NCBI GenBank assembly: GCA_007376295.1
Contig: VMGB01000001.1
Span: 349,969 to 413,968, forward strand
DNA length: 64,000 nucleotides
Direction: 5' to 3'
Origin: Parcubacteria group bacterium Gr01-1014_13
Lineage (GTDB): Bacteria > Patescibacteriota > Patescibacteriia > Magasanikbacterales > GWA2-37-8
The notes beneath the pieces were generated by a model. It was not told where the DNA came from. It made no database searches and saw only the letters and a program-made list of their open reading frames with translations. Made by a program: the position numbers and the translations under genes. Below, piece by piece: positions 31,748-49,892 of the stretch. Numbering within the stretch: the first letter of the stretch is position 1; each line of letters begins with the position of its first letter.

Positions 31748-32702
31748 ATTTTACTTTACCAGTATACCTCTCATAAACCCCGACTGGCCAACCGCACATT
31801 TTGGCGATATCCCCATAAACAATAATAAATGGTAAAAAAACAAATCCCAAAATTTTACTAACTAAAGAAAGTTTCTCGCAATATATAAACCATCTTTTCC
31901 AAAATTTTCTTAAATAATCCAACCAAACAAGCAGTAATAACGCCCCTAATAATGGACCTGTTTTAAGGCTTAAATACAAAAAAAATATATTTACAGAATA
32001 AAAAACATATCTTGCCATCTGGCGATGGAACCATAATTTACCATGACCATCGCTTCTGGTATAACCAAACAATTGTTTAAAGTAACTTTTTAAATTGGTC
32101 CTAGGTCGCCAAAAAACCAACGGCTCCCGTATATACTCTGTTTTTATTGCTAATTTAGAAATTTTTAAATCAAAAACTACATCTTCGCACAACGGAATCC
32201 ATTCTGGATAACCACCCGCCTGTTGCCAAACTTCCTTTTTAAAAGCAACCGAACGGCTGGACGGCAACCAATTTTTTCTAAATTCAAAAGGTGCGGGGAT
32301 AGTAGCGGCGGCTATGAGCCGCGTCAATAAGCTATCATTTGCCTTAAACCATGGACCAAAACCGGTAGCCACAAAACTGCTTTGGCCAGACAAAATTGGA
32401 TCGGTAATTTTTCTAAACCAATTAACATCATAATTACAACCAGCATCAGTTACGACGATTATTTCGCCCTGCGCCTCGCCGATGGCAAAATTTCTGCCGG
32501 CAGATATATTCCCAGGGTATTGCCAAACTTTTACCAAGCTATTTTGCCTGCTTTTTTCCTGCAGCATTTCCCAGGTGCCATCTTTCGAACCTCCATCGAC
32601 GATAATTATTTCTTCGGGCAAAACCGTTTGCGACAAAACCCCCTCTAGCCAATCGGCTAAATTACCGCTTTCGTTTAAAACAGTAGTGATTAGAGAGATC
32701 AT
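31737..32702 (-). CDS. family-2 glycosyltransferase with C-terminal TM helices
   Basis: IIVDGGSKDGT, TDAGC and a hydrophobic C-terminus. Confidence 0.7.
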   Translation of the reverse strand: MISLITTVLNESGNLADWLEGVLSQTVLPEEIIIVDGGSKDGTWEMLQEKSRQNSLVKVWQYPGNISAGRNFAIGEAQGEIIVVTDAGCNYDVNWFRKITDPILSGQSSFVATGFGPWFKANDSLLTRLIAAATIPAPFEFRKNWLPSSRSVAFKKEVWQQAGGYPEWIPLCEDVVFDLKISKLAIKTEYIREPLVFWRPRTNLKSYFKQLFGYTRSDGHGKLWFHRQMARYVFYSVNIFFLYLSLKTGPLLGALLLLVWLDYLRKFWKRWFIYCEKLSLVSKILGFVFLPFIIVYGDIAKMCGWPVGVYERYTGKVKFEN

Positions 32703-33300: not shown

Positions 33301-34437
33301 ATGAGACCAACAACAATCGCTGTAAATGCCCGCATGTTGCTAAAAAATCGACTTGATGGCATAGGCTGGATAGCCTACCACACCTTGAAACGCATGGTGC
33401 AGGAACACCCGGAAATTAACTTTATTTTTTTATTTGACCGAAAATACGACAAGGAATTTATCTTTGGTCCAAATGTTACTCCATATGTAGTTTTCCCGCC
33501 AACTCGCCATCCGGTTTTATACGTTCTGTGGTTCCAAATCGCTATCCCCCGTATCCTAAACAAACTTAAGCCGGATTTATTTTTATCCCATGACGGCCTG
33601 ATAACATTGGGAGCAAAATACAAACAACTCTCGGTTATCTGCGATATTAATTTTTTTCATTACCCTAAGGATCTCCCGTTTGCTTACCGTACTTTCTTTA
33701 ACTTTTTTTTCCCGCGCTACGCAGCCCAAGCAACTAGAATTCTTACCATATCTAACTTTTGTAAAAATGATATTGTAAAAAGCTATCACACTAACCCAGA
33801 CAAAATAGATGTAACATATGTTGGCGTAGAAAGCTCTTTTGCCCCACTCCCGGAAGAAAAACAAGCAGAAGTTCGCGCAAAACATACCGACGGAAAAAAA
33901 TACTTTATTTTTGTCGGCTCAATTCATCCAAGAAAAAATATTGTTGGATTGCTAAAAGCATTTGAACTATTTAAACAAAAAAGCGGCAGCGACTATAAGT
34001 TGGTGCTGGCCGGATCATTTTTTTGGGGCAAAAAAGAAATCAACAAAACCTTGGAAGAAATGAAATACAAAAATGATGTTATTTTTACAGGCCGTACACC
34101 TGATAATACTTTGCGCGAACTGCTCGCTTCGGCATTTTGCCTAACATTTGTTTCTTACTTTGAAGGTTTTGGTATTCCTCTAATCGAAGCGATGCGCTGC
34201 CATACTCCCATTATTTCCTCAAACGTAACCTCATTACCGGAAGTAGCTGGCGATGCAGCGATATATGTTGATCCGTTTAATATTGAAGATATGTGCCGCG
34301 GAATGCTTACCATGTATCAAGACGAAACTTTGCGCAATTCACTTATAAAAAACGGCATTGAACAGTATAAAAAATTTACTTGGGATGCTTCGGCTCAAGG
34401 TTTTTGGTCGAGTATACAAAAAACCTTATCCCAATAA
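33301..34437 (+). CDS. family-4 (GT-B) glycosyltransferase
   Basis: EX7E-type motif (EGFGIPLIEAMRCHTPII), FVGSIHPRKN. Confidence 0.8.
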   Translation: MRPTTIAVNARMLLKNRLDGIGWIAYHTLKRMVQEHPEINFIFLFDRKYDKEFIFGPNVTPYVVFPPTRHPVLYVLWFQIAIPRILNKLKPDLFLSHDGLITLGAKYKQLSVICDINFFHYPKDLPFAYRTFFNFFFPRYAAQATRILTISNFCKNDIVKSYHTNPDKIDVTYVGVESSFAPLPEEKQAEVRAKHTDGKKYFIFVGSIHPRKNIVGLLKAFELFKQKSGSDYKLVLAGSFFWGKKEINKTLEEMKYKNDVIFTGRTPDNTLRELLASAFCLTFVSYFEGFGIPLIEAMRCHTPIISSNVTSLPEVAGDAAIYVDPFNIEDMCRGMLTMYQDETLRNSLIKNGIEQYKKFTWDASAQGFWSSIQKTLSQ

Positions 34438-35445
34438 CGTTGTAGCTTCTCCGGCTTGTCTGCGCCGAATCCACTGCGCAGTTTTTAAAATTCCTTCACG
34501 AAGTGAGATTGTAGGATGCCAATCGATTGCCTTCTCTAACTTTTCGGCTATCATCTCACGGCGCACGGCAGTGACGGCCTTTGTTTCTTTTACTACATAC
34601 TCAAAAGGTCTTTCGTCGCCCAACAGCTCCCAAACCAATTTTGCCGCATCAACAATTTTTGTCGCTTCGCTTGTACCTACATTAAAATCGGTATTCATAA
34701 CTTGAACATCTCGTTGTACGGCCTTTTCTACAATTGCTACTGTTGCCGCCACAGCGTCATCAACATAGGTAAATGGTCTGGTTGCATCTTCGCCACCCAA
34801 AAGTTCAAGCGGGTATTGCCCAGATAAGACCTTCTCAATAAACGCAGGCAGAACATGAATATCGCCGGGAGTTGATCCTTTTGAATCTTCTCCAGGACCA
34901 TAGATGTTATGATAACGAAGAATTACATACGGCATCTGATACTGGGAAAAATATGCACGGCAAAAATATTCACCAGCTAATTTTGACATACCATATACAT
35001 TGGTTGGAAGGTAAGCTTTGGACAAATCTTCTTCACGATATGGAAACACCGTAGATCCTTGAAACGCCATGGAGCTTCCAGAATAGATAATACATGGTTT
35101 GCCAGCATCAAGCGCGGCTGGATAGACCGCAGCATCAATGGCCATATTTTCCTGAAGAATTTCTGCCTGATGCTCATGCATATAGGTTAGCGATCCGATG
35201 TTGGCAGCGAGATGCAAAATAGTATGCGCGTCAGCTAATGCGGATTTGGCAAAAGCAGAATCACGAAGATCGCCTTGTCTTATTTCAACAGAGCTATCAA
35301 ACTCAATACCGCGTTCTTTGGGATGTACTTTATCCACGACTACCACAGGATAACCAAGCTTACAAAGCTCAATAACTACGCGGCTGCCCACATAACCGCT
35401 CCCCCCGGTAACAATAATCTTTTTATCTTTCCCCAAGTCCTTCAT
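34426..35445 (-). CDS. NAD-dependent nucleotide-sugar epimerase/dehydratase (SDR)
   Basis: TGGSGYVGS and YGMSK. Confidence 0.7.
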   Translation of the reverse strand: MKDLGKDKKIIVTGGSGYVGSRVVIELCKLGYPVVVVDKVHPKERGIEFDSSVEIRQGDLRDSAFAKSALADAHTILHLAANIGSLTYMHEHQAEILQENMAIDAAVYPAALDAGKPCIIYSGSSMAFQGSTVFPYREEDLSKAYLPTNVYGMSKLAGEYFCRAYFSQYQMPYVILRYHNIYGPGEDSKGSTPGDIHVLPAFIEKVLSGQYPLELLGGEDATRPFTYVDDAVAATVAIVEKAVQRDVQVMNTDFNVGTSEATKIVDAAKLVWELLGDERPFEYVVKETKAVTAVRREMIAEKLEKAIDWHPTISLREGILKTAQWIRRRQAGEATTLLG

Positions 35446-36736
35446 ATGTAATATGACTATATGATTTTATAACTTTAGAATCAAACAAATGCCAACCATC
35501 AAAAAAGAACGCCTGCTGATTTAAATTTGGAAGTAATTTTTCAATATCAAAATATTCATACGACACATGGTTGTTCATAAAGAGAACACAATCCGCGCCT
35601 TGAAAACCTTCTTCCAGTGTGCACGGCGTAATACCAAGCCCAACAATTGCTTCTCTTTTTACCACGAAATCATGGCCATGTATATTTTTCGCACCCGCTT
35701 CCTGGAGACATTTTAGAAAATCTACTGTTGGAGAACCGCGCAGATCGTCGGTCTCTGGTCTTCCTTTAAATGCCAATCCGGAAACAAAAATTTTTGCGGT
35801 CGCTATGTCTTTACCATTGGCAGCGCAGTGTTTTCGAACCAGGTCAGCGGTAAATACAGGCAAAGATTCATTTACCTTACGTGCCATCGCTACCAACTGA
35901 GGTGTATATCCAGCGGTCGTAGCAAAATCAACTAGAATATGCGGATCTTTTTCCAAACAGGCTCCTCCCACAAATCCAGGTACTGGCACATTGGTTCTAG
36001 GATATCCGAAATTAGCTGCTTCTATGAGCTCTATAGCGTTCAAGCCGAGTTGACGAGACACCATAGCTACTTCATTAGCAAAAGCAAACGTAAGATCCCT
36101 ATATGAATTATCTAAAATTTTAATCATTTCAGCTGACTCAAGAGAAGAAACTCTAATGATAGTTTTAGTAACTTGAATAAAAATTTCCGAAGCTTTATTT
36201 AAGCTTTCTTCGTCTAGCCCGCCAATAACCTGTGGCAGATATTTCAATTCGGAAAGTGCTTTCCCTTCAATTGTACGCTCAGAGGCAAAAGCCAAATAGA
36301 AACGCTCCTTCTGATGTTTCTGTATCATGGGCAATACATAATTTCTGGTAAGCCCTACCGGTACTGTGCTGCGCAATACTACCAAACCACCCGGTCGTAA
36401 GTTCTTGGCCACATCGGTAACAGCGCTTTCAATATGGCTGATAATTGGTTTTTTAGTACTTTTATCAAGCGGTGTTCCTACGGATATAACAAAAACATCC
36501 ATCGCTATGTCTGCGGGAATGGTTGCGGAAATAAACAAATTTTTATTAACAAATTTTTTTAAAAGCACCTCGAGCCCTTTCTCATGGAAATGCGGCTTGC
36601 CATTTCTTAGCTGTTCCGCGAGCTCTTCGCTCTTAGTAATGCCGTAGACTTGGAATCCTTTTTCTGCAAGCACTACTGACAAAGTAAGCCCCACATATCC
36701 CAGCCCTACCACACAAATCTTTTTTGATTCCACCAT
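35423..36736 (-). CDS. nucleotide-sugar dehydrogenase (UDP-ManNAc/UDP-GlcNAc dehydrogenase, WecC/WbpA-like)
   Basis: VVGLGYVGL Rossmann, catalytic Cys (GGACLEKD), C-terminal NDP-sugar binding domain. Confidence 0.75.
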   Translation of the reverse strand: MVESKKICVVGLGYVGLTLSVVLAEKGFQVYGITKSEELAEQLRNGKPHFHEKGLEVLLKKFVNKNLFISATIPADIAMDVFVISVGTPLDKSTKKPIISHIESAVTDVAKNLRPGGLVVLRSTVPVGLTRNYVLPMIQKHQKERFYLAFASERTIEGKALSELKYLPQVIGGLDEESLNKASEIFIQVTKTIIRVSSLESAEMIKILDNSYRDLTFAFANEVAMVSRQLGLNAIELIEAANFGYPRTNVPVPGFVGGACLEKDPHILVDFATTAGYTPQLVAMARKVNESLPVFTADLVRKHCAANGKDIATAKIFVSGLAFKGRPETDDLRGSPTVDFLKCLQEAGAKNIHGHDFVVKREAIVGLGITPCTLEEGFQGADCVLFMNNHVSYEYFDIEKLLPNLNQQAFFFDGWHLFDSKVIKSYSHITYEGLGER

Positions 36737-36808: not shown

Positions 36809-37663
36809 TCAAATCTTCCTTGCTACCAAAGACAAAGTATCTCGCACATTAATCGGTATGGCGAAGTCCTTTAAGAAACTTTTAGCTGACCATTCGGCTA
36901 GTTTGGAAAAGATTTTTAATCCTGTCCAACTATAGAGCAATCGGATTATATAAGGGACAGTAAACCATTTGCCATGGTGCGCTGTATGCACAACTTCAAA
37001 ACCATTTTTTTCCAAGATAGAACCAAGATTTTTGGCAGAGAAATAAAACAGGTGCTGCGGCGGCACAAAGGCATGCCATTTTTTATTCCAAACTCTGGCC
37101 CACAAACTACCAGCATCAGGTGTAGTGAAAAGCAACAGACCTTTGTCTGCAAGCAAGTTTTTTGCTCTATTTATAACATCTACCGGGTCTTTTACATGCT
37201 CAATCACATCCTGCATTACTATTACATCAAATTTCTTTACACTTTGGTATGATTCAAGTGTTGTGGCGGAGGCTGCCAAACCCTTTTCCTGGGCTTTTTT
37301 CACAGCATACTCAGATATATCAATCCCCTCTGTTTCCCAGCCTCTCTGGCGGGCTAAATCCATAAAAAATCCAGTAGCACAGCCTACTTCAAACATACTA
37401 ACCTGGCCTTGTTTGTGAATATATTTAGCAAGCAGGTCGATGTAGTCGATATAGGTTTTTTTAGTTACTTCTTTATCTAAATCATAATCAATATAGCCAT
37501 CGAGCGTCACATCTCCGGTGAAATATCCTTCCGAATAATATGGACTCAGATCTGCTGGAATATTTTCTACGGCCATCAATTTGCAGGACGGGCAACGCAT
37601 AATATGAAAAGTTTTCTTCACAAAATATGGTTCCATTTTTGTCTGACAATTAATACAAATCAT
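36809..37663 (-). CDS. class I SAM-dependent methyltransferase with N-terminal zinc ribbon
   Basis: CxxC...CxxC at the N-terminus. Motif I VGCATGFF. Acidic motif II. Confidence 0.65.
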   Translation of the reverse strand: MICINCQTKMEPYFVKKTFHIMRCPSCKLMAVENIPADLSPYYSEGYFTGDVTLDGYIDYDLDKEVTKKTYIDYIDLLAKYIHKQGQVSMFEVGCATGFFMDLARQRGWETEGIDISEYAVKKAQEKGLAASATTLESYQSVKKFDVIVMQDVIEHVKDPVDVINRAKNLLADKGLLLFTTPDAGSLWARVWNKKWHAFVPPQHLFYFSAKNLGSILEKNGFEVVHTAHHGKWFTVPYIIRLLYSWTGLKIFSKLAEWSAKSFLKDFAIPINVRDTLSLVARKI

Positions 37664-37664: not shown

Positions 37665-39878
37665 TTAAATTTTTTCTAATAAAAATACAGTATATTTATA
37701 GGTGTAGCTAGGACGGTTAAGAATTTTTTCTTTCACTTTTTTAAAAGTTGGATCAAGTGGCACGCTATCAAATCGTTTGATAACCTTATACCCTTCCGGC
37801 ACACCGGCTTCGGTATCAATTGTTTCTTCCGCACCCTCGGAGCCTGTCGAAAAAAACCAAATTTGCGCATGCGCAGGCAAGTCTACAGAACTCGGGTTAT
37901 TAAAATTAATTGGAATGGTGTTGCTAAAATATTTTTCTTTATAAAAATCATAAACCCCGCCAATTGCGTTGGGCGTAATAGCTAAATATTGGCCCGGCCG
38001 GGAATGATCGCGAACATACTGATACTGTTCAAAGGTTCGGAAATAACTGGGATTGAGATAATTTTTTGCCTGATAAAAGTTACAAAGACCACACACGGCT
38101 ACTATCCCCCACAACAAAAACAAAACGAATTGAATTTTATAGCGTAATTTACTTAAACATAACACGAATACCATAATCCATAACGGATAAGCCACAAAAC
38201 CAAATTTCGGATAAACTATAAAATTATAGCGGGGATCGGCTATATTCATAAAAAAAGTGTTCAGTAAAACCATCGACGCCGCTAGAAAAACAACAAATAA
38301 TTGTCCGGCTGTCCACATTTTTTTTCTAAACCCATAAACAAATCCTGCTATAACTGCGATTAAAACAGTGATACCGACTACAAAGACATAGTTCCAAGGG
38401 AAAATATTTTCCCCAAAGAAAAAACTGTAAATATGAAAAAATACCGCAAAAACAATGTGTTTCCATGAATTTGCCAGCAGATTAATATTGCTCCAACCGC
38501 CATCGCCTTGAATAACTATTCGGTGATATATCATCCATACTAACGGGCTCAACAAAATAGCTGCAACCAACTGACCGAAAAACCATTTTACAAATGGTAT
38601 TATCGGCCGGCGTCTAATTAAACCATACAAATAAACTAGGTTGGTAAAAAAGGCAACATAAAAAAAATGCGGATAGTCGGTATAACCAACCAAAACTAAC
38701 GCGGCTAAGTACCAATACCAGACATGTTTGCGGTATCCCTCAAACAGAAGCCGGTAAAAAAAATAAAATGTCAGCAAAGAAAAAAAGGCTGCTAAACTAT
38801 GATAGCGGGCCATTTGCGAAATCAAGACAAAGTATGACGAAAAAGCGGTAAAAAAAGCGGCTAGCAAAGCTACTTTTTTATTACCTACTACTAAATGAGT
38901 AAATTTATAAACCAAACAAACAATCCCCAATCCGGCTAAAATAGAAACCAGTCTGATTGTTAATTCTGTCCAAGGAAAAATCTTACTCGCTATAAGCACC
39001 AAAAAATAATAAAGCGGAGGATGATTATCTGGATGATTCCAATAGGAAACTATAAAACCGCCAACACTGTTTTTTAAATAATCTAAGACCGCCGTCTCAT
39101 CGCCCCAAAAAGTGCGATAAGCAACGCGGTATAACAATAAAAAAACCGATAAAGCCAATATGCCGACTAAATATTTATGCTTGCATGCCCAATGCCAAAA
39201 TTTATAAAAGCTATAAAAAATAATTTGTTTTAAAAATAGCCAGTACTCTTTTTTGTCCAATTTTGAAGTGCTAAATTTTCTAATTCTAAATTGAAAAGGC
39301 ACTTCTTTAACTCGCGCCTGTTTGCCCTTAATTAAAATTTCCAAAAGAATTTTATAACCCACGGTACTAAGCGGGACTCCGGTAATTACTTCCCGTTTCA
39401 AGAAAAAAAACCCGCTCAGCGGATCTTTAACGCCAGTTAAAAATCTGGTTGCCATCACTCCGGCTTCGGAAATAAGTTTACGCCACCACTTCCACTGTTC
39501 AACACTACTTCCCTTTTCAAATCTGCTACCTAAAACAATGTCGTGATCTTTTAGCAAACCGACCATTTCGTTTATATTTTTTGGGTCATGACTTAAATCT
39601 GCATCCATTACTCCTAGTAGCGGCCTGTCGGAATGGTTAAAACCTTCACGTACAGCGCTGCCTAATCCCAGCTTACCAGATCTATGTACCACTTTGATAG
39701 GAAATTGCTTGCTTAACTCTTCCGCTACCTGACCAGTTCCATCCGGCGAATTATCATCTACAACAATAAGTTCGGCATCAATTTCTGTCTTATTAATAAC
39801 GCTAAAAACTTCTTCCACTAAAAGTGGTAAATTTTTTGCTTCATTATAAGTTGGAATAATAATTGAAACCTTTAGCAT
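37665..39878 (-). CDS. fusion protein: polyprenol-phosphate sugar synthase-like GT2 (DPM1/GtrB/ArnC-like) + PMT/ArnT-like GT-C glycosyltransferase
   Basis: The N-terminal ~230 aa is a GT-A (IIIPTYNEAKNL, VVDDNSPDGT, DADLSHDP). It is followed by >10 TM helices carrying a DE motif (FWGDETAV) and an HPPL-like motif (NHPPLYYFL) in the first extracytoplasmic loop, as in PMT/ArnT GT-C enzymes. Confidence 0.65.
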   Translation of the reverse strand: MLKVSIIIPTYNEAKNLPLLVEEVFSVINKTEIDAELIVVDDNSPDGTGQVAEELSKQFPIKVVHRSGKLGLGSAVREGFNHSDRPLLGVMDADLSHDPKNINEMVGLLKDHDIVLGSRFEKGSSVEQWKWWRKLISEAGVMATRFLTGVKDPLSGFFFLKREVITGVPLSTVGYKILLEILIKGKQARVKEVPFQFRIRKFSTSKLDKKEYWLFLKQIIFYSFYKFWHWACKHKYLVGILALSVFLLLYRVAYRTFWGDETAVLDYLKNSVGGFIVSYWNHPDNHPPLYYFLVLIASKIFPWTELTIRLVSILAGLGIVCLVYKFTHLVVGNKKVALLAAFFTAFSSYFVLISQMARYHSLAAFFSLLTFYFFYRLLFEGYRKHVWYWYLAALVLVGYTDYPHFFYVAFFTNLVYLYGLIRRRPIIPFVKWFFGQLVAAILLSPLVWMIYHRIVIQGDGGWSNINLLANSWKHIVFAVFFHIYSFFFGENIFPWNYVFVVGITVLIAVIAGFVYGFRKKMWTAGQLFVVFLAASMVLLNTFFMNIADPRYNFIVYPKFGFVAYPLWIMVFVLCLSKLRYKIQFVLFLLWGIVAVCGLCNFYQAKNYLNPSYFRTFEQYQYVRDHSRPGQYLAITPNAIGGVYDFYKEKYFSNTIPINFNNPSSVDLPAHAQIWFFSTGSEGAEETIDTEAGVPEGYKVIKRFDSVPLDPTFKKVKEKILNRPSYTYKYTVFLLEKI

Positions 39879-41041
39879 AATGATCTGTAAATATCGGTTA
39901 CTTGATGAACATACTCTTCCACAGCAAATTTTTTAGTCTCTTTTTGACAGCCAGCCTTTAAGTGGCTATATACAACTTGGTCATCTAAACTAGCTAAAGC
40001 ATTGGCTAGCGCAATTGGATGAGCTGGCGGCACAATTAAACCAGCCTCCCCGACTACTTCCGGAATTGCGCCGCAATAGGTGGAAACAATGGGCACTTGC
40101 GCGCAAATAGCTTCGCCCAAAACATAGCCAAATTGTTCTTGCCAAGTTGGTCGAGGAATACTTCCTAAGATAAGACATTTTGCCCCTTTATAAAACGCTA
40201 ACATTTCGTCATATGGTAATTGACTGTGGAAAATAACCTTATCGGTTAAGCCCCAATCCTTCACAATTCTAACCATGTTCTGGAGTTCAGGACCCTTACC
40301 AACTATTACCAATAATTTTTTGCTTGAATCTAATAATTTGGAAAGGTATATCCTCCAACCATACAAAACATCGTAAACCCCTTTTTCTTTTACCAAACGA
40401 TTTACCATTAAATATACTTCTTTTCCGGCTAATTGAGGCGGAAAAATAGTTTTATCAATTACGGGAGCGGGTACGATTCCAGGAATAACAACCTGAATTT
40501 TTTTCTCTGGAACACCATAATCCAATAATAACCCCGCAGCATCATGGGAAACTGGCAAGAACTTATCAACTTCTTCTTTGTTGTAATCCATTATTTTTTT
40601 AAGTTGACGACGCCAATAAAGAGGTGGCATTTTAAAACCTGGCCAATAATTATATTCAAATCTGCCAAAACTGTTTTCCCAAACTGTAACGACTGTCTTT
40701 AATTTTTTATTTATTTTTTTAGCCATCACCGCCTGATACGTAAAGTAGTTATACAATTCACTAGTATGAACGATATCAAAACCTTCCAACTTTTTTTCCA
40801 AACCAAAAAACCTTTTATACTGACCGAAAAAATATTTATAAAAATTTTTAGACAAAAAATTATCGCTGCTGGTATGCATTTTTATCATTGGAAACGGCAA
40901 AGGCGATTGAACATAAACATTTTTACGCGCCGCAAAAACTGTTTGGACTATATCTTCGGGAAAATATTTCCAAGTCTTAGTTTCGTGATCTCCCAAACCA
41001 TCTCCGCGAATCTGAGCTACGGTAATTTTTTTCTGAGACAT
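39872..41041 (-). CDS. family-4 (GT-B) glycosyltransferase
   Basis: EQFGYVLGEAICAQVPIV EX7E motif. Confidence 0.75.
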   Translation of the reverse strand: MSQKKITVAQIRGDGLGDHETKTWKYFPEDIVQTVFAARKNVYVQSPLPFPMIKMHTSSDNFLSKNFYKYFFGQYKRFFGLEKKLEGFDIVHTSELYNYFTYQAVMAKKINKKLKTVVTVWENSFGRFEYNYWPGFKMPPLYWRRQLKKIMDYNKEEVDKFLPVSHDAAGLLLDYGVPEKKIQVVIPGIVPAPVIDKTIFPPQLAGKEVYLMVNRLVKEKGVYDVLYGWRIYLSKLLDSSKKLLVIVGKGPELQNMVRIVKDWGLTDKVIFHSQLPYDEMLAFYKGAKCLILGSIPRPTWQEQFGYVLGEAICAQVPIVSTYCGAIPEVVGEAGLIVPPAHPIALANALASLDDQVVYSHLKAGCQKETKKFAVEEYVHQVTDIYRSLC

Positions 41042-41045
41042 AAAA

Positions 41046-42245
41046 TTATTTCATTTCGTATTTAAAATACAACACATCGCCTGTGGTGCTAAACTGATCC
41101 CTATTTTTCCAAAAATAGTTCCATGTACAAGGAATGTTATTTTTACACAGATTCATGATTGTAAAAAGAGTGGCGTAACGAAGGGTGCTTTGGATAATAT
41201 AAGGAGTGATCATAGCTAGAACTACCATACCAATAGCGAGATGCTTAAACCAACGTCCTTTAATATAAATGTTATATATACCATAAGCAGCTATTGGCGC
41301 AAACAGCCAGGCGGAAATAAATACCGTCCTGGCTATAAACATTGGCCAGCTATAATATGATAGACTTGATAGTATAACTGCTAACAAATAAATTTTTATA
41401 TTCTTATCCAAATTCCGCCAATTTCTTATTAAGAAATATAAACCAATTGCAATAAATAGCCACAAAATATTATAGGTACTGGCATGAACACCAAACCATC
41501 TAAGCAAAGTAAAATTTTCCGCGACGTATGCCTTCCAATTTTCTGTAAACCAATATGCTGAACTGTAATTAACATCCTGCCCTCTGAAAAAATTGACAAT
41601 AATTGTCGCAAACGGAAAAATAGAAAATCTAATAAAGTTAAACACTCTTTCTTTCCAAGAAACTTTATCGAGTAAAAATAAAATACCGACAAATAATGCG
41701 CCCATACTGCCACTTTCCTTTGTCAAAAGCCCAAACGCAACGGCCATACCGCCTAAATAAAGCCATGACTTATTCTTATCTTCCCACCATCTCCAACCAG
41801 CATAAAGGGTCAGCACAAACCAAAAGTATCCGCCCATATCCTGAACTTGAGTAAGCGCATAACGCACCATTGCATATCCGGTCATGACAGTAATAGCGGA
41901 AACAAAACCGATAAAATTATTTTTAAAAACTCGCCTAATTAATCCGTATGTTAAAAGTACCAGGCCATAATAAAAAACTATATTGGTCGTAATCAAACTT
42001 TGCTCCGGCGACATAAAAAATAGCAACTTTGCGCTTACTACCGCATAAAAAGGATTCAGGTACCTGGCGGGGAAAAAGGAAACATCGTATCCTCTAAAAA
42101 ATTTGATCAAATCTATAAAGCCCGATGTGTCGTTATTGGGATGAAAACCATATAAAAAACTAAAAACAACCAAATTAAGCGTGGCCAAAAAAGCTAGTGA
42201 AAAAATGATTTTGTGTTTTTTTATTTTTTCAAATAAAGCCACCAT
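41046..42245 (-). CDS. polytopic membrane protein, possible GT-C-fold glycosyltransferase
   Basis: 399 aa, ~11 TM helices, aromatic-rich. Adjacent to a GtrB-like GT2. No clear DE motif. Confidence 0.4.
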   Translation of the reverse strand: MVALFEKIKKHKIIFSLAFLATLNLVVFSFLYGFHPNNDTSGFIDLIKFFRGYDVSFFPARYLNPFYAVVSAKLLFFMSPEQSLITTNIVFYYGLVLLTYGLIRRVFKNNFIGFVSAITVMTGYAMVRYALTQVQDMGGYFWFVLTLYAGWRWWEDKNKSWLYLGGMAVAFGLLTKESGSMGALFVGILFLLDKVSWKERVFNFIRFSIFPFATIIVNFFRGQDVNYSSAYWFTENWKAYVAENFTLLRWFGVHASTYNILWLFIAIGLYFLIRNWRNLDKNIKIYLLAVILSSLSYYSWPMFIARTVFISAWLFAPIAAYGIYNIYIKGRWFKHLAIGMVVLAMITPYIIQSTLRYATLFTIMNLCKNNIPCTWNYFWKNRDQFSTTGDVLYFKYEMK

Positions 42246-42260
42246 ACTTTTTATATAAAT

Positions 42261-42971
42261 TTAAAATGATTTAAAACGCCATTTTAAAATTGTCCACAAA
42301 ACAACTAGTCCATCCCGATAACGAATCTTTTTTCCTTCCGCAAAAGTTCTCGGATTATAATGAATAGGAACTTCTGCTATTTTTAACCCCTTTCTAAAAA
42401 GTTTGCACAGTAATTCGACATCGTAGGCAAAACCATCGGCTTGAATTGGCAAATCGACCATATACTGTCGTGGAATTATTTTGTAGCAAGCAAAAAAATC
42501 CGTCCCCTGTCTATTATACAACAAATTAATACTGGCTATAATAAGTTTATTCCCCAAATATGTGAGCGGGTGCGGGTGAGACCAGCCTGTATGAATATTT
42601 TTTAATTCACTAAACCTAGCTCTGGATCCCAAACTAATATCGGCTATATTTTTTTGTATTGGCTCAATCAAGGCTTTTAGGTCCTGTGGGTCATATTCTA
42701 AATCAGCATCTTGAATAGTAATGTAATCTCCCGTAGCCTGCGCTATCCCCAGCTTTACTGATGCCCCCTTACCGCTGTTTTTTTCTTTAAAAACAACTTT
42801 GTAGGTATCGCCCAAACCTTTTAAAATCTCCCGGGTTCCATCGGTTGAACAGTCATCAACAATAATGATTTCTTTTTGGCAATCATTTAAAAAAACTTGA
42901 TCTACCCTTTTTAATATTTCAAGAATTGTATCTTTTTCATTGTAAGCAGGGATAATTATGGAAAGTTTCAT
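42261..42971 (-). CDS. polyprenol-phosphate sugar transferase-like GT2 (GtrB/DPM1-like)
   Basis: IIIPAYNEKDTI, IIVDDCSTDGT, DADLEYDP. Confidence 0.75.
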   Translation of the reverse strand: MKLSIIIPAYNEKDTILEILKRVDQVFLNDCQKEIIIVDDCSTDGTREILKGLGDTYKVVFKEKNSGKGASVKLGIAQATGDYITIQDADLEYDPQDLKALIEPIQKNIADISLGSRARFSELKNIHTGWSHPHPLTYLGNKLIIASINLLYNRQGTDFFACYKIIPRQYMVDLPIQADGFAYDVELLCKLFRKGLKIAEVPIHYNPRTFAEGKKIRYRDGLVVLWTILKWRFKSF

Positions 42972-43894
42972 AGCCGTTTACTTATTTCTTCCATCATCTT
43001 TGTAACCTTGCTTCCAAATTCGATACCGGTTAGCGGACGGCTATTTGTATTTATACACTCAATAAAATGTTCTAATTCATTTCTCAGCGGTTCACGCGCT
43101 GTTACTATAGGAACAACAGGCTGATCAATTACACCGGATAAAGGCAAGGTCGATTTATTTCCGTCCCGTACCGGATATGAATTTTTAATCCATTTTAATT
43201 TTACTTCTTCACGATCATTAAACAAAACCATTCCTTTGTCTCCCACTAGTGTTACTTTACGCACTTTTTCCGGCCAATACCAAGATGTGATTAGGTGGGC
43301 TGTCAGACCGCTTTGAAACTTTACTGTAACACCGGTAAAATCATCTTTGGCGGAAGAATTAAACGAACGACTTGCTCCCGAAATTTTTACAATCTTTCCC
43401 GGAGAAAATAAATACTCCACTACCGCCAGATCGTGTATGCCGGCATCCATGAAACTTCCGACATCAGCTCTTAAAAGTCCGCAATAAAGATTTTCTCCCA
43501 TTAAGTACTTAACTGTTCCCAGTTCGCTAATACGATTCTTTATATATCGAATCGAATCGTTATAAATATATTGAAAACCAACCATGAAAACTAAACTTTT
43601 ATTTTTCTTTAATTCTTTTTCTACTTTTTTGGCTTCGGCAACGCTAAGCACCATCGGTTTTTCAACCAAAACATGCTTACCGGCGCGAAGAGATTTAAGT
43701 ATTATTTCGCAATGAGTAGAGGGCGGGGTAGCAATGACAACACAATCAATTTCTTTGTTATTTATAATTTCATCCGTTTCTGCAGATGTATTAGAGGTTT
43801 TGACTAACTTTACACCAGGAATTTCCGGCAACAAACGAACATAGTGTTTTCCAAAATGCCCCAATCCGATTATCCCAAATTGCAGAATTTTCAT
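42968..43894 (-). CDS. Gfo/Idh/MocA family NAD(P)-dependent oxidoreductase
   Basis: N-terminal Rossmann IIGLGHFG with EKP motif (VLVEKP) and a C-terminal alpha/beta domain. Confidence 0.7.
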   Translation of the reverse strand: MKILQFGIIGLGHFGKHYVRLLPEIPGVKLVKTSNTSAETDEIINNKEIDCVVIATPPSTHCEIILKSLRAGKHVLVEKPMVLSVAEAKKVEKELKKNKSLVFMVGFQYIYNDSIRYIKNRISELGTVKYLMGENLYCGLLRADVGSFMDAGIHDLAVVEYLFSPGKIVKISGASRSFNSSAKDDFTGVTVKFQSGLTAHLITSWYWPEKVRKVTLVGDKGMVLFNDREEVKLKWIKNSYPVRDGNKSTLPLSGVIDQPVVPIVTAREPLRNELEHFIECINTNSRPLTGIEFGSKVTKMMEEISKRL

Positions 43895-43909
43895 ACTGCA
43901 AAATTATAT

Positions 43910-46201
43910 TTATATTAAGATGTTTTTCATCCATTTATAGGAACGAGCTAATCCGTCTTGTAAACTGATCGATGGGTTATAGCCCACCATCGACTTGGCT
44001 TTGGACAAATCCGGACAGCGTCTGGAAGGTTCGTCTTGAGGGTAATTATCAGGATAATTAACTAAGTTTATTTCAACTTTTTTGTCTGGTACAACAGTTA
44101 CAAAAATTTCGGCTAGTGATTTCATATTAATTTCCGGACCATCGTTGCCAATATTAAACACTTCACCATTTTTGTCGGAAAGCAAAACTTTAAAGAAACC
44201 GATGATGGCGTCGGTAACATAACAAAATGTCCGTGTCTGATTTCCTTTATCGTGGACGGTTAGTGGCTTGCCTTCAATGGCCTGGCTTAAAAATGTTGGT
44301 ACGACTCTGTAGTCTTTAGCGCTCATCCCTGGACCATAGACATTAAAAGGACGGACAAATTTAACAGGAACTTGGTGTGTTTGGTAATAAGCCATGCACA
44401 AAGTTTCACCAAGACGCTTGGATTCATCATAGCAAGATCGTGGGCCGGTGGAAGAAACATTGCCCTTGTATGTCTCCGGAGTAGGAATAAACTTTGGATC
44501 CGGATCTCCGTAAATTTCACTGGAACTAAAATATAATACGCTGGTTACATTTTTCGCCAAAGCCAGCTTTAACATGTTATTTAAACCTAAAACTGTTCCT
44601 TCTATAGTTTCGATTGGGTATTTCTTGTAATAAACAGGTGAAGCAATGCCGGCGGCAGAAACAATATAATCAATCGGCATATCCAGAGAAATTGGCTCAC
44701 AGATGTTGTGCTGTTTAAACACAATATATTCGCTGTTCACTTCTTTGAGAAGATTGTTTTTCTTTCCGACAATATGATTGTCGAGCGAAAGTACTCGGCA
44801 AGGTGTTTTAAAATATTTTTTATTTAACAAGTCTATCGTCGCTGTTAGGTAGCTGCCGACAAATCCGGATCCGCCCGTAATCAAAACAGTTTTACCTTCG
44901 AGCGCACCCGCCACTTTCTCTATCCCTTTGGCAATAACATTTAAATCTTCTTCCACTACCCCACTAACAACTTGGGCAAATGGTACGGGGATAATAAAAT
45001 TCTCGAAATCAGAACATTTCTTAATAATAGAATCGGCAAAATTCCAAGCTAAAATTAGGATATAATCCGGAGGATTTTCTTTCAATTCAGTAGCGGCTTT
45101 TACCGGAATATGCGTACCCGGAGAATATAGCCCTTGTTTCCACACGCTATCATCAACAATATAATCCAAAGTTTCCGGTCCGATATTAAAGTAATTCAAC
45201 AAAGTACTGCCTTTTGCCGGAGCGCCATAACCAATAATTTTTTTGCCTTTAGATTTTAAGTCGCGCAAAAGTTCCAGCAAACGAGTTTTATTTTCACTAA
45301 TTTTGCCTTGAAAATTTAGAAAGGTTTCTATATCAGTCATCTTTCTTTCGTTTTCATGAGCGATAAATTTTTCTATGTTTGGCGATACAGTATGCTTCCC
45401 GCCTTTTCTCTGCACAAAGACACGCAGAGATCCACCGTGAGTATCTGTTTTTTCAACATCAAATACCTGCATTCCCAAACGATCAAATAAAGTACTGATT
45501 GTTTTTACAGTAAAATAAGAAAGGTGTTCATGATAAATAGTGTCAAATAAATTTTTCTCGATTAAATCCAATAAATAGTATGCTTCGATAACAAAAACAC
45601 CATCATCAGCCAATAAAGTTTTTACTCCTTCCACCACAGAATCCAAATCGTCTATGTGCGGAAAAACGCTGGTGGCTGTCATCAGAGATGCTTTGCCCTT
45701 TTCTTGCGCTATTTTACCAGCCACTTCCGGAGTAAAATATGCCGCCATTGTTTCTATACCATTTTCGGTTGCTCTCGCCGCAATATTTGCAGCCGGATCA
45801 ACGCCCATTATCTTTATACCCATTTCTTTATATGGACGCAGTAAAATTCCATCATTGCTGCCAATATCAACCACCAATGAATTGCTATCTAAAGCAAATC
45901 GCTGAGCCATTTCACTGGCAAAAGATTTGAAATGGGCCACAAAAACTGGTGAAGTGGATGAGCTATAGACATAATTACCAAAAAGAAGATCTGGAGATAC
46001 TACGTCTGTGAGCTGAACAAATGAACAGTCCTTACAAAAAGACAGCTCCAGCGGAAAGCTGGGCTCTGGTTTGTCTAGGTCTTCTGGTTTTAAGAAAGCA
46101 TTGGCCGGAGGCGTGCTTCCCAAACTTAATACTTTGGCTAAATTTGTTCCTTTACAGACCCTACAGTCATTTTTTGTTACACAGAGATCACCAAGAGACA
46201 T
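43910..46201 (-). CDS. fusion protein: TylCIII-like NDP-sugar C-methyltransferase + UXS/ArnA-like SDR (decarboxylase/4-ketoreductase family)
   Basis: N-terminal Cys4 zinc ribbon (CRVCKG...CKDCS), SAM motif VVDIGSNDGILL and a C-methyltransferase C-domain (residues ~1-430). The C-terminal ~320 aa carry TGGSGFVGS and the UXS-type CYDESKRLGETLC motif. Confidence 0.7.
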   Translation of the reverse strand: MSLGDLCVTKNDCRVCKGTNLAKVLSLGSTPPANAFLKPEDLDKPEPSFPLELSFCKDCSFVQLTDVVSPDLLFGNYVYSSSTSPVFVAHFKSFASEMAQRFALDSNSLVVDIGSNDGILLRPYKEMGIKIMGVDPAANIAARATENGIETMAAYFTPEVAGKIAQEKGKASLMTATSVFPHIDDLDSVVEGVKTLLADDGVFVIEAYYLLDLIEKNLFDTIYHEHLSYFTVKTISTLFDRLGMQVFDVEKTDTHGGSLRVFVQRKGGKHTVSPNIEKFIAHENERKMTDIETFLNFQGKISENKTRLLELLRDLKSKGKKIIGYGAPAKGSTLLNYFNIGPETLDYIVDDSVWKQGLYSPGTHIPVKAATELKENPPDYILILAWNFADSIIKKCSDFENFIIPVPFAQVVSGVVEEDLNVIAKGIEKVAGALEGKTVLITGGSGFVGSYLTATIDLLNKKYFKTPCRVLSLDNHIVGKKNNLLKEVNSEYIVFKQHNICEPISLDMPIDYIVSAAGIASPVYYKKYPIETIEGTVLGLNNMLKLALAKNVTSVLYFSSSEIYGDPDPKFIPTPETYKGNVSSTGPRSCYDESKRLGETLCMAYYQTHQVPVKFVRPFNVYGPGMSAKDYRVVPTFLSQAIEGKPLTVHDKGNQTRTFCYVTDAIIGFFKVLLSDKNGEVFNIGNDGPEINMKSLAEIFVTVVPDKKVEINLVNYPDNYPQDEPSRRCPDLSKAKSMVGYNPSISLQDGLARSYKWMKNILI

Positions 46202-46209
46202 ATTTTAAT

Positions 46210-46605
46210 TTATATAAGCTTCACACGAACAGTATCTTGTTCATAATCACCCTGACTTCTGGATTTTAAAGCAAAAACGAAACAAGTTGTATCTTCCAAA
46301 AACTTCATGGCATGAGCTACCATTGGTCGAGAAAAAACCATATCACCAGCTTTAACAATCTCTTTTTCCATCTTGGTTAAATCTGGGACACCATCAACTA
46401 GAGGTGCTTCATAATACTCCATGCTTCCGGTGAGTAAATAAACATGATGCCCGTCTTCTTTGTGGTAATGATTAGCGCGAATAGCACCCGGCTTAGAAGT
46501 CATCATTAGCATACTTTTAATAGTTGTCTGGCCATCATCGAGCAATTTGGTGATTCCACCTCTGTCATCAACAAATTCTGGAGCAATATTTCTTACGATT
46601 TGCAT
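46210..46605 (-). CDS. small cupin, WxcM/FdtA-like (NDP-4-keto-sugar 3,4-ketoisomerase family)
   Basis: 131 aa single cupin barrel with an HYHKEDGHH His cluster. Size and context fit the FdtA/WxcM N-domain family rather than RmlC. Confidence 0.5.
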   Translation of the reverse strand: MQIVRNIAPEFVDDRGGITKLLDDGQTTIKSMLMMTSKPGAIRANHYHKEDGHHVYLLTGSMEYYEAPLVDGVPDLTKMEKEIVKAGDMVFSRPMVAHAMKFLEDTTCFVFALKSRSQGDYEQDTVRVKLI

Positions 46606-46739: not shown

Positions 46740-48272
46740 ATGTCGAGACTACAACCAAAAATTCTTTTGGTTTACCCGCCTAACCAGCTGATGGCTATTG
46801 AAATGCCCCGGCCGGACGGTTCGCTCGGCCCATTGTACCTCAGCGGCGCTCTTCGCGACGCAGGGTTTGATGTTGATCTACTGGACGCTTCTGTCGGTAC
46901 AAACGAAGATAAGCTCAGTGATACGTTCCACAACCGAGTTCTCTTGCCGAACGGTCTAACCCGTATCGGCATGACCCCGGATCGCCTGCGGGAATACTTC
47001 GCCAAAGGCAACTTTGATATCGTAGGTATTAGCAGTAACTTCACCCCCCAGACCAAAATGGCTCTGGAGGTGGCAGGCATTGCTAAAGAAGTAAACCCCG
47101 AAACTCTAGTTATTGCGGGTGGTGTCAATGCCCGCGCACTTTCGGATCGTTTCCTAGCGAGTCGTTTGGTGGACGTGGTCATCCTCACCGAAGGTGAAAA
47201 AATCATCGTCGACCTGGCTCGTGCCTGGCAACAAAACACGTCGTTTGACAATGTAAATGGTATTAAATACTTGCGCACGGGATTCCCGGTGACTAGGCCA
47301 GTAACTCCGGAATTAATCTCGGATAATCTGGACAGTCTACCGATTCCAGCCTGGGATCTTCTACCACATGCCAAATACGACGAAATCAATAGTCCGCATG
47401 GTAGTATCATTAGCAGTCAGAAGCGGCGTTACGCCCCTATCATGACCTCGCGCGGCTGTCCGTTCCGCTGCGCATACTGCCACATTAGTGAAGAAAAAGA
47501 GGCCGGCTCCTTCACAGGCGATATCGGCTCATTGCGACTCAAATCGATTGATCGCGTTATGGAGGAACTAAAAAAATTACTCGCGCTTGGAGTAACCCAC
47601 CTCTATATCGAAGACGACAGTCTTCTCGCCAAAAAAGCTCGCATCAAAGATCTTTTTCATCGCCTTACCGGCCTTGGACTGAAGATTAGCGGTGTGAACG
47701 GCGTAAATCTAGTCCACTTTGGTATCCCGACTACAAACGGACGGCTAAAACCAGACGTTGGGTATCTGGAAATCCTAAAGGGTGCTGGATTTGATGAGAT
47801 TGTCTTCCCGGTAGAATCCGGAAATCAACGGATTCTTGATAAATACGCTACGTCTAAACTGCCTCTGGATAAACTTGATGTCATCCAACTCGTGCGCGAT
47901 GCGGTGGAAGTCGGAATTACCTGTCCAGTCAATATGATGGTTGGGTTCCCCGACGAAACTAAAGCCGAGATGAATGAGAGTGTTGAGCTGGCAAAGAAAC
48001 TCATCGATGCTGGTGCTCGATACGTAACGTTCTTTATTCCTATTCCGTTCCCCGGAAGCAAGCTATACCGTATGGCTATCGACGGGGGCCACTTGTCAGC
48101 TGATTTCGATCCGGACACGATGAATTGGAAAAATGCTGTCATGCAAAATACGACGGTGCCACCGGAGGAAGTGGTGGAATTCCGCGATTGGGCGTGGGAA
48201 ACAGTAAATAGCGAAGACTATAAGAAGAAACGTAAAGAAAGAGAAATTGGCGATCAGCGCTTTGCAAAATAA
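46740..48272 (+). CDS. B12-binding radical SAM enzyme (class B, cobalamin-dependent radical SAM methylase family)
   Basis: 510 aa with an N-terminal B12-binding-like Rossmann domain and a CxxxCxxC cluster motif (SRGCPFRCAYCH). The ORF is clearly GC-enriched (~50%) relative to flanking genes. Confidence 0.85.
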   Translation: MSRLQPKILLVYPPNQLMAIEMPRPDGSLGPLYLSGALRDAGFDVDLLDASVGTNEDKLSDTFHNRVLLPNGLTRIGMTPDRLREYFAKGNFDIVGISSNFTPQTKMALEVAGIAKEVNPETLVIAGGVNARALSDRFLASRLVDVVILTEGEKIIVDLARAWQQNTSFDNVNGIKYLRTGFPVTRPVTPELISDNLDSLPIPAWDLLPHAKYDEINSPHGSIISSQKRRYAPIMTSRGCPFRCAYCHISEEKEAGSFTGDIGSLRLKSIDRVMEELKKLLALGVTHLYIEDDSLLAKKARIKDLFHRLTGLGLKISGVNGVNLVHFGIPTTNGRLKPDVGYLEILKGAGFDEIVFPVESGNQRILDKYATSKLPLDKLDVIQLVRDAVEVGITCPVNMMVGFPDETKAEMNESVELAKKLIDAGARYVTFFIPIPFPGSKLYRMAIDGGHLSADFDPDTMNWKNAVMQNTTVPPEEVVEFRDWAWETVNSEDYKKKRKEREIGDQRFAK

Positions 48273-49873: not shown

Positions 49874-49892
49874 ATAAATTACTGGTTTATTA

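Follow-up and report, generated by a model that had tools for sequence, protein, structure and literature searches.

Two glycosyltransferase domains in one polypeptide

Can a single polypeptide both load a lipid carrier with a sugar and spend that sugar on the far side of the membrane? This question is raised by a 737-amino-acid (aa) open reading frame (ORF) at 37665-39878 on the minus strand of a 64,000-nucleotide (nt) stretch of DNA from Parcubacteria group bacterium Gr01-1014_13 (assembly GCA_007376295.1, contig VMGB01000001.1, positions 349,969 to 413,968); the whole stretch analyzed is called the window here. The source is an uncultured groundwater bacterium of the Patescibacteria with a genomic GC content of about 38%, and its close relatives are metagenome-assembled genomes (MAGs) of Magasanikbacteria. 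An original prediction had held that the ORF joins a GtrB-like synthase of polyprenol-phosphate sugars to a glycosyltransferase (GT) of the GT-C type resembling PMT and ArnT, and that a second, unfused pair lies close by. From sequence comparisons and structural models, it was concluded that the 737-aa protein is probably a two-in-one enzyme of lipid-carrier-dependent extracytoplasmic glycosylation, of the three-component GtrA/GtrB/GT-C type.

All three motifs quoted in the prediction (DADLSHDP, FWGDETAV, and NHPPLYYFL) are in the translation. In Pfam, Glycos_transf_2 matches residues 5-136 (E=3.8e-30), PMT_2 residues 285-448 (E=1.8e-10, 41.7 bits against a curated cut-off of 26.1), and PMT residues 287-443 (E=4e-7, 30.3 bits; cut-off 22.7). 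An AlphaFold2 model based on 79 homologues has a predicted local distance difference test score (pLDDT) of 92.4 and a predicted template modelling score (pTM) of 0.87. With this model, Foldseek retrieved GT-A relatives first (the dolichol-phosphate-mannose synthase (DPMS) of Pyrococcus furiosus, PfDPMS, 5mlz, 3e-19) and then ArnT (5f15, 4e-7, TM-score 0.54 over 620 columns). Thus, Pfam, phmmer (see below), AlphaFold2, and Foldseek agree on a DPM1-type GT-A domain followed by a PMT/ArnT-like GT-C domain.

On the minus strand, the protein is laid out as follows. The GT-A catalytic domain (residues 1-208) is encoded at 39255-39878, with its DAD motif (D92-A-D94) at 39597-39605. The fusion junction is an amphipathic interface helix of the model (residues 209-233, 39180-39254), the equivalent of interface helix 2 (IFH2) of PfDPMS. 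The GT-C membrane domain (residues 235-602, 38073-39176), to which the PMT_2 and PMT matches belong, has about 11 transmembrane (TM) helices and carries the DE motif (D260 and E261, 39096-39101), the HPP motif (H286-P288, 39015-39023), and R309 (38952-38954). A C-terminal soluble alpha/beta domain (residues 603-737, 37668-38072) is modelled with high pLDDT as a mixture of strands and helices. An assembly or frameshift artefact was ruled out, since the identical 737-aa protein is present on two contigs, fused orthologues could be traced down to about 48% identity, and the fused form is found in 12 of 24 species.

Fused and split forms among relatives

Is the fusion a fixed trait of this clade? 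The species representatives of GTDB were scanned, and every ORF was scored with hidden Markov models of the three domains, giving 24 orthologous loci. The two enzymes of the 737-aa protein, called pair B here, are fused in 12 of these loci, split but adjacent in nine, split with a gap in one, and not scorable in two. In the split orthologues, the GT2 gene stops just past the interface helix and the GT-C gene begins 1-2 nt on. The fused form differs from the split form by the removal of about a dozen junction residues.

The second pair, called pair A, consists in the window of a 236-aa GT2 and a 399-aa GT-C. It is fused in five related loci (four of the 24, and L002) and split elsewhere. On L002, a 568-kb JGI contig, the order is a GT4, a 625-aa fused GT2+PMT_2 protein, a 230-aa GT2, a 517-aa GT-C, and a methyltransferase. 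The 625-aa protein corresponds to the 236-aa protein (45% identity, 4e-60) plus the 399-aa protein (56% identity, 7e-162) of the window, and the 230-aa GT2 is 67% identical to the N-terminal domain of the window fusion. Both L002 and L003 have the orthologous 230-aa GT2 and 516/517-aa GT-C of pair B as separate genes, 1 nt apart. All four combinations of fused and split pairs were seen, with neither pair split in L006, L015, and L026. More distant Patescibacteria, such as Woesebacteria, have a DPM1-like GT2 of about 235 aa 1-3 kb from a homologous GT-C.

Reciprocal fusion and splitting of both pairs among relatives makes it very likely that every GT2 has the neighboring GT-C as its partner. 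The best explanation of the 737-aa protein is that it arose from two adjacent, translationally coupled genes, and this origin, taken together with the mechanism proposed below, is probable. Repeated and reversible fusion is a natural "Rosetta-stone" type of evidence for dedicated, probably physically associated synthase/GT-C pairs.

Many of the related loci (L004-L007, L009, L012, L013, L016, L019-L022, and L025-L027) come from TPA_asm MAG records titled "uncultured Gammaproteobacteria bacterium", and they carry the Magasanikbacteria-type module. Their proteins are 45-70% identical to those of Magasanikbacteria MAGs, and the titles are almost certainly taxonomic mislabels.

The N-terminal synthase domain

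In a phmmer search of all PDB sequences, the best match was PfDPMS (5mlz, E=2e-55, residues 2-223), ahead of ArnC (3e-11) and GtrB (5ekp, 6e-10). Over 225 aa, the domain is 47% identical to the catalytic domain of PfDPMS. Thus, the synthase class foreseen by the original prediction stands, while the label "GtrB-like" should be replaced, the domain being far closer to DPM1/DPMS. The two C-terminal TM helices of the GtrB/ArnC class, whose members are tetrameric and use UDP-sugars, are missing, the split form being a 230-aa protein without any TM helix.

In PfDPMS, guanine is contacted by D39, mannose by L69, D89, H94, R117, and K178, and the metal and diphosphate by D91 and Q93; the lipid phosphate is held by R117, R131, S135, and K178, and E12, R202, and K208 belong to the closing loop (PMC5526996). 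R117, R131, S135, and K178 are described as "conserved in bona fide DPMSs" (PMC5526996). Among 14 contacts checked, 12 are identical in the window protein (E12, D39, L69, D89, D91, H94, R117, R131, S135, K178, R202, and K208 in PfDPMS numbering), and two are changed (Q93 to S and F177 to Y). The contact residues are invariant in the 41 fused members, except for S96 (40 of 41). The lipid-phosphate residues are R119, R133, S137, and K176 in the window protein, all invariant, and so is the D92-A-D94-L-S-H97 motif (DxD followed by L-x-H) in 41 of 41. Thus, by its sequence and model, the N-terminal domain is classed as a DPM1/DPMS-type polyprenol-phosphate-mannose synthase of the GT-A fold.

It shares with DPM1, type III PfDPMS, and the actinobacterial Ppm1 the GT-A fold, the DAD-L-x-H motif, the R117/R131/S135 triad, K178, and the A-loop residues R202 and K208, and it has both interface helices of PfDPMS. 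Unlike these DPMSs, it has neither the GtrA-like four-TM domain of type III, nor the single C-terminal TM helix of type I, nor DPM2/3 partners; instead, the catalytic domain is joined to a GT-C enzyme. Type III DPMSs are marked by DADxQHPP and a GtrA-like four-TM domain with N248, N277, and F338 (PMC12992685). The window protein has DADLSHDP in place of that motif, its GT-A domain runs directly into the GT-C domain, and Pfam found no GtrA_DPMS_TM domain in the 737 residues. Both the fused GT-A domain and the 230-aa split form lack TM helices; PfDPMS is still active without its TM domain (PMC12992685).

The GT-C domain and its orientation in the membrane

The Pfam match above the gathering score and the structural match to ArnT place the C-terminal part in the GT-C fold class (clan CL0111; PMT_2, PF13231). 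Across 79 sequences, D260, H286, P288, R309, P445, R550, and P557 are invariant, and E261 is kept in 78 of them. Loop 1 of Streptomyces coelicolor Pmt has D113/E114, H159-x-P161, and R182 (PMC8698208). The spacing from the histidine to the arginine is 23 residues in both proteins (H286-R309 and H159-R182), and the window protein carries the complete GT39 loop-1 signature DE...(V/N)HPP...R (D260/E261, H286, P288, and R309). The match to Pfam PMT (PF02366) is partial, 30.3 bits over profile positions 63-228 of 245. Since the family profile matched no PDB sequence and Pfam found no PMT_4TMC or MIR domain in the 737-aa protein, the domain was filed as a "PMT-like" PMT_2/GT-C and not as GT39.

Like the GT39 PMTs (yeast Pmt1/2 and the Pmts of S. 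coelicolor and Mycobacterium tuberculosis) and ArnT (GT83), it has a DE motif in the first outer loop, an HPP motif, an arginine 23 residues later, 11 TM helices, and a GT-C fold. Unlike them, it shows no sequence-level match to the solved members and no PMT_4TMC or MIR domain, and it ends in a distinct alpha/beta domain. A transporter was ruled out: the fusion matches ArnT, and the top 35 matches of the paralogous 399-aa protein are all GT-Cs.

On which side of the membrane does the DE motif lie? The GT-A domain is placed in the cytoplasm because its donor is a nucleotide sugar. In the model, the helix of residues 209-233 is followed by a helix at 235-249 and then by a long loop opening with D260/E261. 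The 209-233 helix has a mean hydropathy of -0.20, while the TM helices score 1.7-2.1; its homologue in PfDPMS is IFH2, and it forms the C-terminus of the stand-alone 230-aa enzyme of relatives. For these three reasons it should lie on the membrane, and an additional TM helix here, which would invert the topology, was ruled out by the same hydropathy, the IFH2 homology, and the soluble C-terminus of the split form. Since only one crossing, the hydrophobic helix of residues 235-253, then separates the cytoplasmic GT-A domain from D260/E261, the DE motif is expected outside. The 11-TM assignment from the model helices leaves 14 lysine and arginine residues in short inner loops versus eight in longer outer loops. 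The model helices, hydropathy, and positive-inside counts thus bear out, as a prediction, the earlier placement of the DE motif in the first outward loop; the conserved outer-loop motifs and the 603-737 domain are likewise predicted to be outside. Two outcomes had been named beforehand as telling against the PMT/ArnT-like assignment, a cytoplasmic DE motif and a match to a transporter family, and neither was seen.

The soluble domain follows the 11th TM helix and is conserved in the family; Pfam gave no match for residues 603-737. In the model it is predicted to be extracytoplasmic, and it probably helps in acceptor binding.

The second pair

Pair A was also examined. All four ORFs of the region were confirmed at their stated coordinates, and they lie in a run of minus-strand genes. 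The 236-aa GT2 (42261-42971, minus strand) matches Pfam Glycos_transf_2 (E=4.6e-35) and has its DAD motif at 42702-42710. Its best PDB matches are DPMS (1e-20) and ArnC (1e-12), and it has no TM helix. It is 32% identical to PfDPMS, with the changes L69K, Q93E, H94Y, R131H, S135Y, and K178A. Because these contacts with the sugar and the lipid phosphate differ from DPMS, the protein, a polyprenol-phosphate-sugar synthase-like GT2 on its sequence, probably uses a donor other than mannose.

The 399-aa protein (41046-42245, minus strand) is a minimal GT-C. Its Pfam PMT_2 match (E=1.5e-7, 32.2 bits) is above the cut-off of 26.1, as is that of the fusion, so that the Pfam check proposed with the prediction came out positive for both ORFs. 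The AlphaFold model (pLDDT 92.2, pTM 0.91) consists of about 11 TM helices, without a soluble domain. In Foldseek, its 35 best PDB matches are all GT-Cs, at TM-scores of 0.39-0.59 relative to the query (STT3, ALG12, AglB, PglB, Pmt4, Pmt1/2, ALG9, ArnT, AftB, Emb, and DPY19), while transporters gave E>0.3 and a TM-score of about 0.13. The invariant residues are D39 (42129-42131, in the first outer loop right after TM1), D136, and K176-E177. A profile-profile comparison of the two GT-Cs was marginal (probability 27%, E=6.5e-4), and they are therefore regarded as distant paralogues. An 11-TM GT-C beside a GT2 was thus rightly foreseen, and the second pair exists; it had been placed downstream of the fusion, and since the genes are on the minus strand, it lies upstream (5′).

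Proposed mechanism

Taken together, the 737-aa protein would act as follows. The cytoplasmic GT-A domain would move mannose, to judge from the substrate contacts, from GDP-mannose to polyprenol (undecaprenyl) phosphate at the inner face of the membrane, giving beta-mannosyl-phosphopolyprenol. The amphipathic IFH2-like helix would lie on the membrane and run straight into TM1 of the GT-C domain. After the lipid-linked sugar has reached the outer leaflet, the GT-C domain, with D260/E261, H286-P-P288, and R309 in loop 1, may pass the mannose to an extracytoplasmic acceptor, which could be the glycan of the surrounding 45-kb locus or secreted and surface proteins. The fusion may also supply membrane anchoring for the TM-less DPM1-type domain, as in the analogous Ppm1 of M. 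tuberculosis. Pair A would do likewise with a different sugar. The cytoplasmic GT-A domain fixes the topology of the GT-C N-terminus, and the fusion assigns a donor, putatively mannose, to an otherwise unannotated GT-C family of Patescibacteria.

Several points weigh against this scheme. The mannose donor is deduced from the contact residues, two of which differ from PfDPMS (Q93S and F177Y). PMT_4TMC is absent from the GT-C domain, and the profiles of both GT-C families matched no solved structure among the PDB sequences. Membership in Pfam PMT_2 does not tell which acceptor is modified, and functions within the GT-C clan vary widely (PMC7801869). Finally, no GtrA component was detected: Pfam gave no match to PF04138 (GtrA) on the scanned ORFs of the window, small membrane ORFs included, and the GtrA module of a triple fusion described below (P0118) found no match in the window or in L001-L027, although such a single-sequence phmmer search has limited sensitivity. 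Thus, of the three components, a co-encoded synthase and GT-C are present (in 24 species and as two paralogous pairs), and a GtrA component was not found in the sequences covered.

Known three-component systems are GtrA/GtrB/Gtr(type), ArnC/ArnE-F/ArnT, CsbB/GtcA/YfhO, GacI/GacL, and PgfS/PgfM (PMC11127046, PMC7389260, PMC12041528). As in these systems, a cytoplasmic GT2 is predicted to make a polyprenol-phosphate-monosaccharide, a GT-C to use it outside, and the genes are clustered. Unlike them, synthase and transferase are one polypeptide here, and no GtrA-type flippase was detected in the window or L001-L027; unlike GtrB, the synthase is DPM1-like and lacks the two C-terminal TM helices. 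Another parallel is Ppm1 of M. tuberculosis (Rv2051c), a synthase joined to an Lnt-like membrane domain, which is split into Ppm1 and Ppm2 in M. smegmatis and C. glutamicum (PMC3460810, PMC3485146). In both cases, a TM-less synthase is fused to, or split next to, a polytopic partner of a related envelope pathway, depending on the species. The partner in Ppm1 is N-acyltransferase-like and N-terminal, while that in the window protein is a C-terminal GT-C that would consume the product. The fused, reversibly split form without a flippase module is a variation on the known three-component scheme, the component enzymes being well known.

Is a separate flippase required?

Of most interest here is the question of whether a protein of this kind could by itself carry the lipid intermediate that it makes to the other leaflet. 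The sole flippase-like gene in the window is of the Wzx type (56486-57820). For the TM domain of type III DPMS, which is GtrA-like, a role in flipping dolichyl-phosphate-mannose (Dol-P-Man) has been proposed, and the eukaryotic Dol-P-Man scramblase has yet to be identified (PMC12992685). The window fusion lacks exactly this GtrA-like module. In one conceivable scheme, the fusion is self-sufficient: it would make lipid-linked mannose inside and use it outside with no dedicated GtrA-type flippase, the lipid flipping along the GT-C domain or at the interface of the amphipathic helices of the synthase and the GT-C. I regard this as unlikely. If true, it would give a minimal single-polypeptide model for the membrane crossing of Dol-P-Man and undecaprenyl-phosphate sugars, and in any case, with both enzymes in one compact chain, the protein lends itself to testing whether synthase-transferase pairs depend on an additional flippase.

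Three other ORFs were considered as components. An ORF at 16319-16657 (minus strand; 112 aa, four TM helices) was rejected as GtrA, since it is a strong match to "Mycobacterial 4 TMS phage holin, superfamily IV" (holin-IV, E=5e-36); it adjoins an M50-type peptidase fragment. An ORF at 27780-28133 (minus strand; 117 aa, three hydrophobic TM segments) was likewise not accepted, having no Pfam family match; it lies directly upstream of FtsW/RodA (26665-27777), and L003 shows the same pairing of a 117-aa-type ORF with FtsW/RodA. A 321-aa GT2 with C-terminal hydrophobic helices (31737-32702, minus strand) was set aside as a GtrB candidate, its similarity to DPMS being weak (7.5e-5) and the DAD (DxD-L-x-H) motif absent. 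Counterparts of about 320 aa lie near the module in most related loci (L002, L003, L006-L008, and others).

Operon and surrounding locus

From 5′ to 3′ on the minus strand, the 236-aa GT2 is followed by the 399-aa GT-C, a GT4, the 737-aa fusion, and a methyltransferase. The 389-aa GT4 (39872-41041, minus strand; Pfam Glycos_transf_1/Glyco_transf_4) sits between the two pairs, reaches 7 nt into the fusion gene with its 3′ end, and accompanies the module in relatives as well. Upstream of pair A, on the same strand, Pfam and NCBIfam identified a cupin (46210-46605), a fusion of a C-methyltransferase with a short-chain dehydrogenase/reductase (SDR) dehydratase (43910-46201), and a GFO/IDH/MocA oxidoreductase (42968-43894), separated from each other and from the 236-aa GT2 by 8, 15, and -4 nt. 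Further downstream, Pfam identified a UDP-sugar dehydrogenase (35423-36736) and an epimerase (34426-35445), both also on the minus strand. From the cupin to the epimerase, the gaps are -23 to +15 nt, except for one of 72 nt, and these genes are therefore regarded as one operon. The nucleotide-sugar-modification genes at 42968-46605 might provide pair A with its donor sugar.

The S-adenosylmethionine (SAM)-dependent methyltransferase (284 aa, 36809-37663, minus strand; Pfam Methyltransf_23, 2.5e-30) starts 1 nt after the fusion gene and has an N-terminal Cys4 zinc-ribbon-like motif. It is always directly downstream of pair B, and L002 and L003 have it in the same place. Its similarity to TcaB9, a C-methyltransferase of NDP-sugars, is weak. 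As SAM is found in the cytoplasm, it was speculated that this enzyme may methylate the sugar before export.

In other lineages, DPM1-like GT2s (44-48% identical to the window N-terminal domain) are joined to SAM methyltransferase domains, one or two per protein (P0108-P0116 and P0119), and in a Magasanikbacterium protein (P0096) the partner of the DPM1-like GT2 is an FkbM methyltransferase. The window has its counterpart of these methyltransferases as the separate next gene at 36809-37663. Its product shows full-length homology to the methyltransferase fused to the GT2 in P0109 (29% identity, 2e-33); no similarity was found to that of P0102.

The surrounding 45-kb locus is of the polysaccharide type, with many GT2 and GT4 genes, the Wzx-like flippase, and nucleotide-sugar and heptose genes. 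The window encodes Gmd (GDP-mannose 4,6-dehydratase) at 62145-63119 (407 bits), and it also has a phosphoglucose/phosphomannose isomerase (PGI/PMI)-type gene at 23632-24696 and a sugar-1-phosphate nucleotidyltransferase at 18799-19878. Since the window encodes these three enzymes, GDP-mannose is evidently available.

What is the acceptor, and is the sugar mannose?

The functional reading of the original prediction, which named both proteins and the glycan of the locus as targets, is essentially right. The operon and locus context speaks for a GT-C that decorates a wall or S-layer glycan; the loop-1 signature speaks for a PMT-like protein mannosyltransferase. In the first case, the two pairs would add two different side-branch sugars, outside the cell, to the polysaccharide or S-layer glycan of the locus, as Gtr, GacI/GacL, and CsdAB-type systems do. 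This is possible, at somewhat less than an even chance. In the operon, the pairs are separated by a GT4 and flanked on both sides by nucleotide-sugar-modifying genes, a Wzx-like flippase is encoded in the locus, the same module stands within similar glycan loci in L002 and L003, and three-component systems typically lie in or next to polysaccharide clusters (PMC11127046, PMC10821137). However, the active-site signature is closer to PMT than to any characterized glycan-decorating GT-C, and no initiating phosphoglycosyltransferase, polymerase, or ligase was recognized among the scanned ORFs of the window. In addition, no polymer structure is known for any Patescibacterium.

Alternatively, the fusion may be the equivalent of Ppm1 plus Pmt and O-mannosylate Ser/Thr residues of secreted or surface proteins such as pilins, S-layer proteins, or wall-anchored proteins. 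The PMT-like DE...HPP...R signature with the spacing of S. coelicolor Pmt, the 11 TM helices, the Pfam PMT match above its cut-off, and the mannose-type donor synthase all point this way. TMTC1-4, which O-mannosylate proteins, are PMT_2 members (PMC7801869), and protein O-glycosylation by a GT2 with a GT-C exists in streptococci (PMC12041528). On the other hand, PMT_2 also holds ArnT-like lipid and glycan transferases, and a tight operon within a 45-kb polysaccharide-type locus is the usual setting for glycan-decorating GT-Cs. Moreover, neither PMT_4TMC nor a sequence-level match to a solved PMT was found, no candidate Ser/Thr-rich acceptor was identified, and a literature search on O-mannosylation in Patescibacteria found nothing. 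Overall, protein O-mannosylation is a tentative reading of slightly lower probability. Either way, the surface glycobiology of Patescibacteria is essentially unexplored.

It is doubtful that the GT-A domain uses a donor other than mannose and makes polyprenol-phosphate-glucose, -GlcNAc, or another sugar, like GtrB, GacI, ArnC, or PpgS. Two PfDPMS contacts do differ, and NCBIfam gives matches to AglJ, ArnC, PgfS, and PpgS, all far below their cut-offs. However, the DPMS match is better than that of GtrB or ArnC by about 45 orders of magnitude, and the residues reading mannose O2/O3/O4/O6 and guanine (D89, H94, R117, K178, D39, and L69) are kept. In addition, the motif has the form DADLSH, as in eukaryotic DPM1.

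The weakest proposal is that the GT-C mainly anchors or activates the TM-less DPM1-type domain, the mannose-lipid being used by other enzymes, for which Rv2051c with its Lnt-like domain and the Ppm1/Ppm2 pair are precedents (PMC3460810, PMC3485146) and to which the fusions of DPM1-like GT2s with methyltransferases, FkbM, and GtrA plus peptidase M28 also lend themselves; it is very improbable, as the GT-C catalytic signature is strictly kept in fused and split forms, adjacency is kept when the genes are split, the second pair behaves alike, and anchoring and consumption are not mutually exclusive.

Distribution of such fusions

Is this type of fusion uncommon, as the original prediction had it? 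With a profile of the unfused GT-C family, a search of 1.84 billion representative proteins gave 29,531 relatives with E below 1e-3, of which 120 fall below 1e-30. Among the 150 best, P0022 (746 aa) is a clear fusion and a second protein possibly one. P0118 has GT2 at residues 4-165, GtrA_DPMS_TM at 238-355, and PMT_2 at 452-612, and is 26% identical to the window protein. In a search seeded with P0118, about 59 of 120 clusters among the matches listed have the GT2+GtrA+PMT_2 arrangement (875-960 aa), and nine have GT2+PMT_2 (about 768 aa). Thus, the claim of rarity is true among the best 150 GT-C relatives; it fails within the clade, where 12 of 24 species have the fusion, and for the clusters of GT2(+GtrA)+PMT_2 proteins. 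As in the window protein, the synthase of these chains is N-terminal to the GT-C; in the triple fusions a GtrA-like module lies between the enzymes, while the window protein goes from the interface helix directly into TM1.

The triple fusions bear source names from several phyla, such as Rubinisphaera margarita, Desulfobacterales, Nitrospiraceae, and "Pseudomonadota". Such chains are named only "glycosyltransferase" or "dolichol-phosphate mannosyltransferase" in the databases, and the large GT2+PMT_2 and GT2+GtrA+PMT_2 sets are an annotation gap extending over several phyla. No description of GT2-GT-C fusions was found in an open-access literature search, and the text of PMC11127046, searched for "fused" and "fusion", has nothing on such fusions. 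Another arrangement, GT2+GtrA+peptidase M28, is found in P0440, P0459, P0461, P0466, and P0474 (1037-1105 aa), with PDZ domains in all of them but P0440.

Other features of the window

Two proteins of the window have no Pfam match: a 494-aa polytopic protein with at least six hydrophobic segments (7346-8830, minus strand) and a 769-aa protein (9947-12256, plus strand). The 763-aa product of the gene at 43910-46201 (minus strand) combines a TcaB9-like sugar C-methyltransferase (Methyltransf_13/23/14) with an SDR domain of the NDP-sugar 4,6-dehydratase/epimerase type. A second, stand-alone C-methyltransferase is encoded at 60541-61749 (minus strand). These two enzymes suggest that C-methylated deoxysugars are made in the locus. 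A 510-aa B12-binding radical SAM enzyme (46740-48272, plus strand) is encoded midway through the glycan operon, on the other strand, and it has the same place in L001. A cassette at 49151-52832 (minus strand) encodes a transaldolase, a haloacid dehalogenase (HAD)-type phosphatase (GmhB-like), a SIS isomerase (GmhA-like), a GHMP kinase, and a nucleotidyltransferase, and resembles the GDP-D-glycero-D-manno-heptose pathway of S-layer glycans and capsules.

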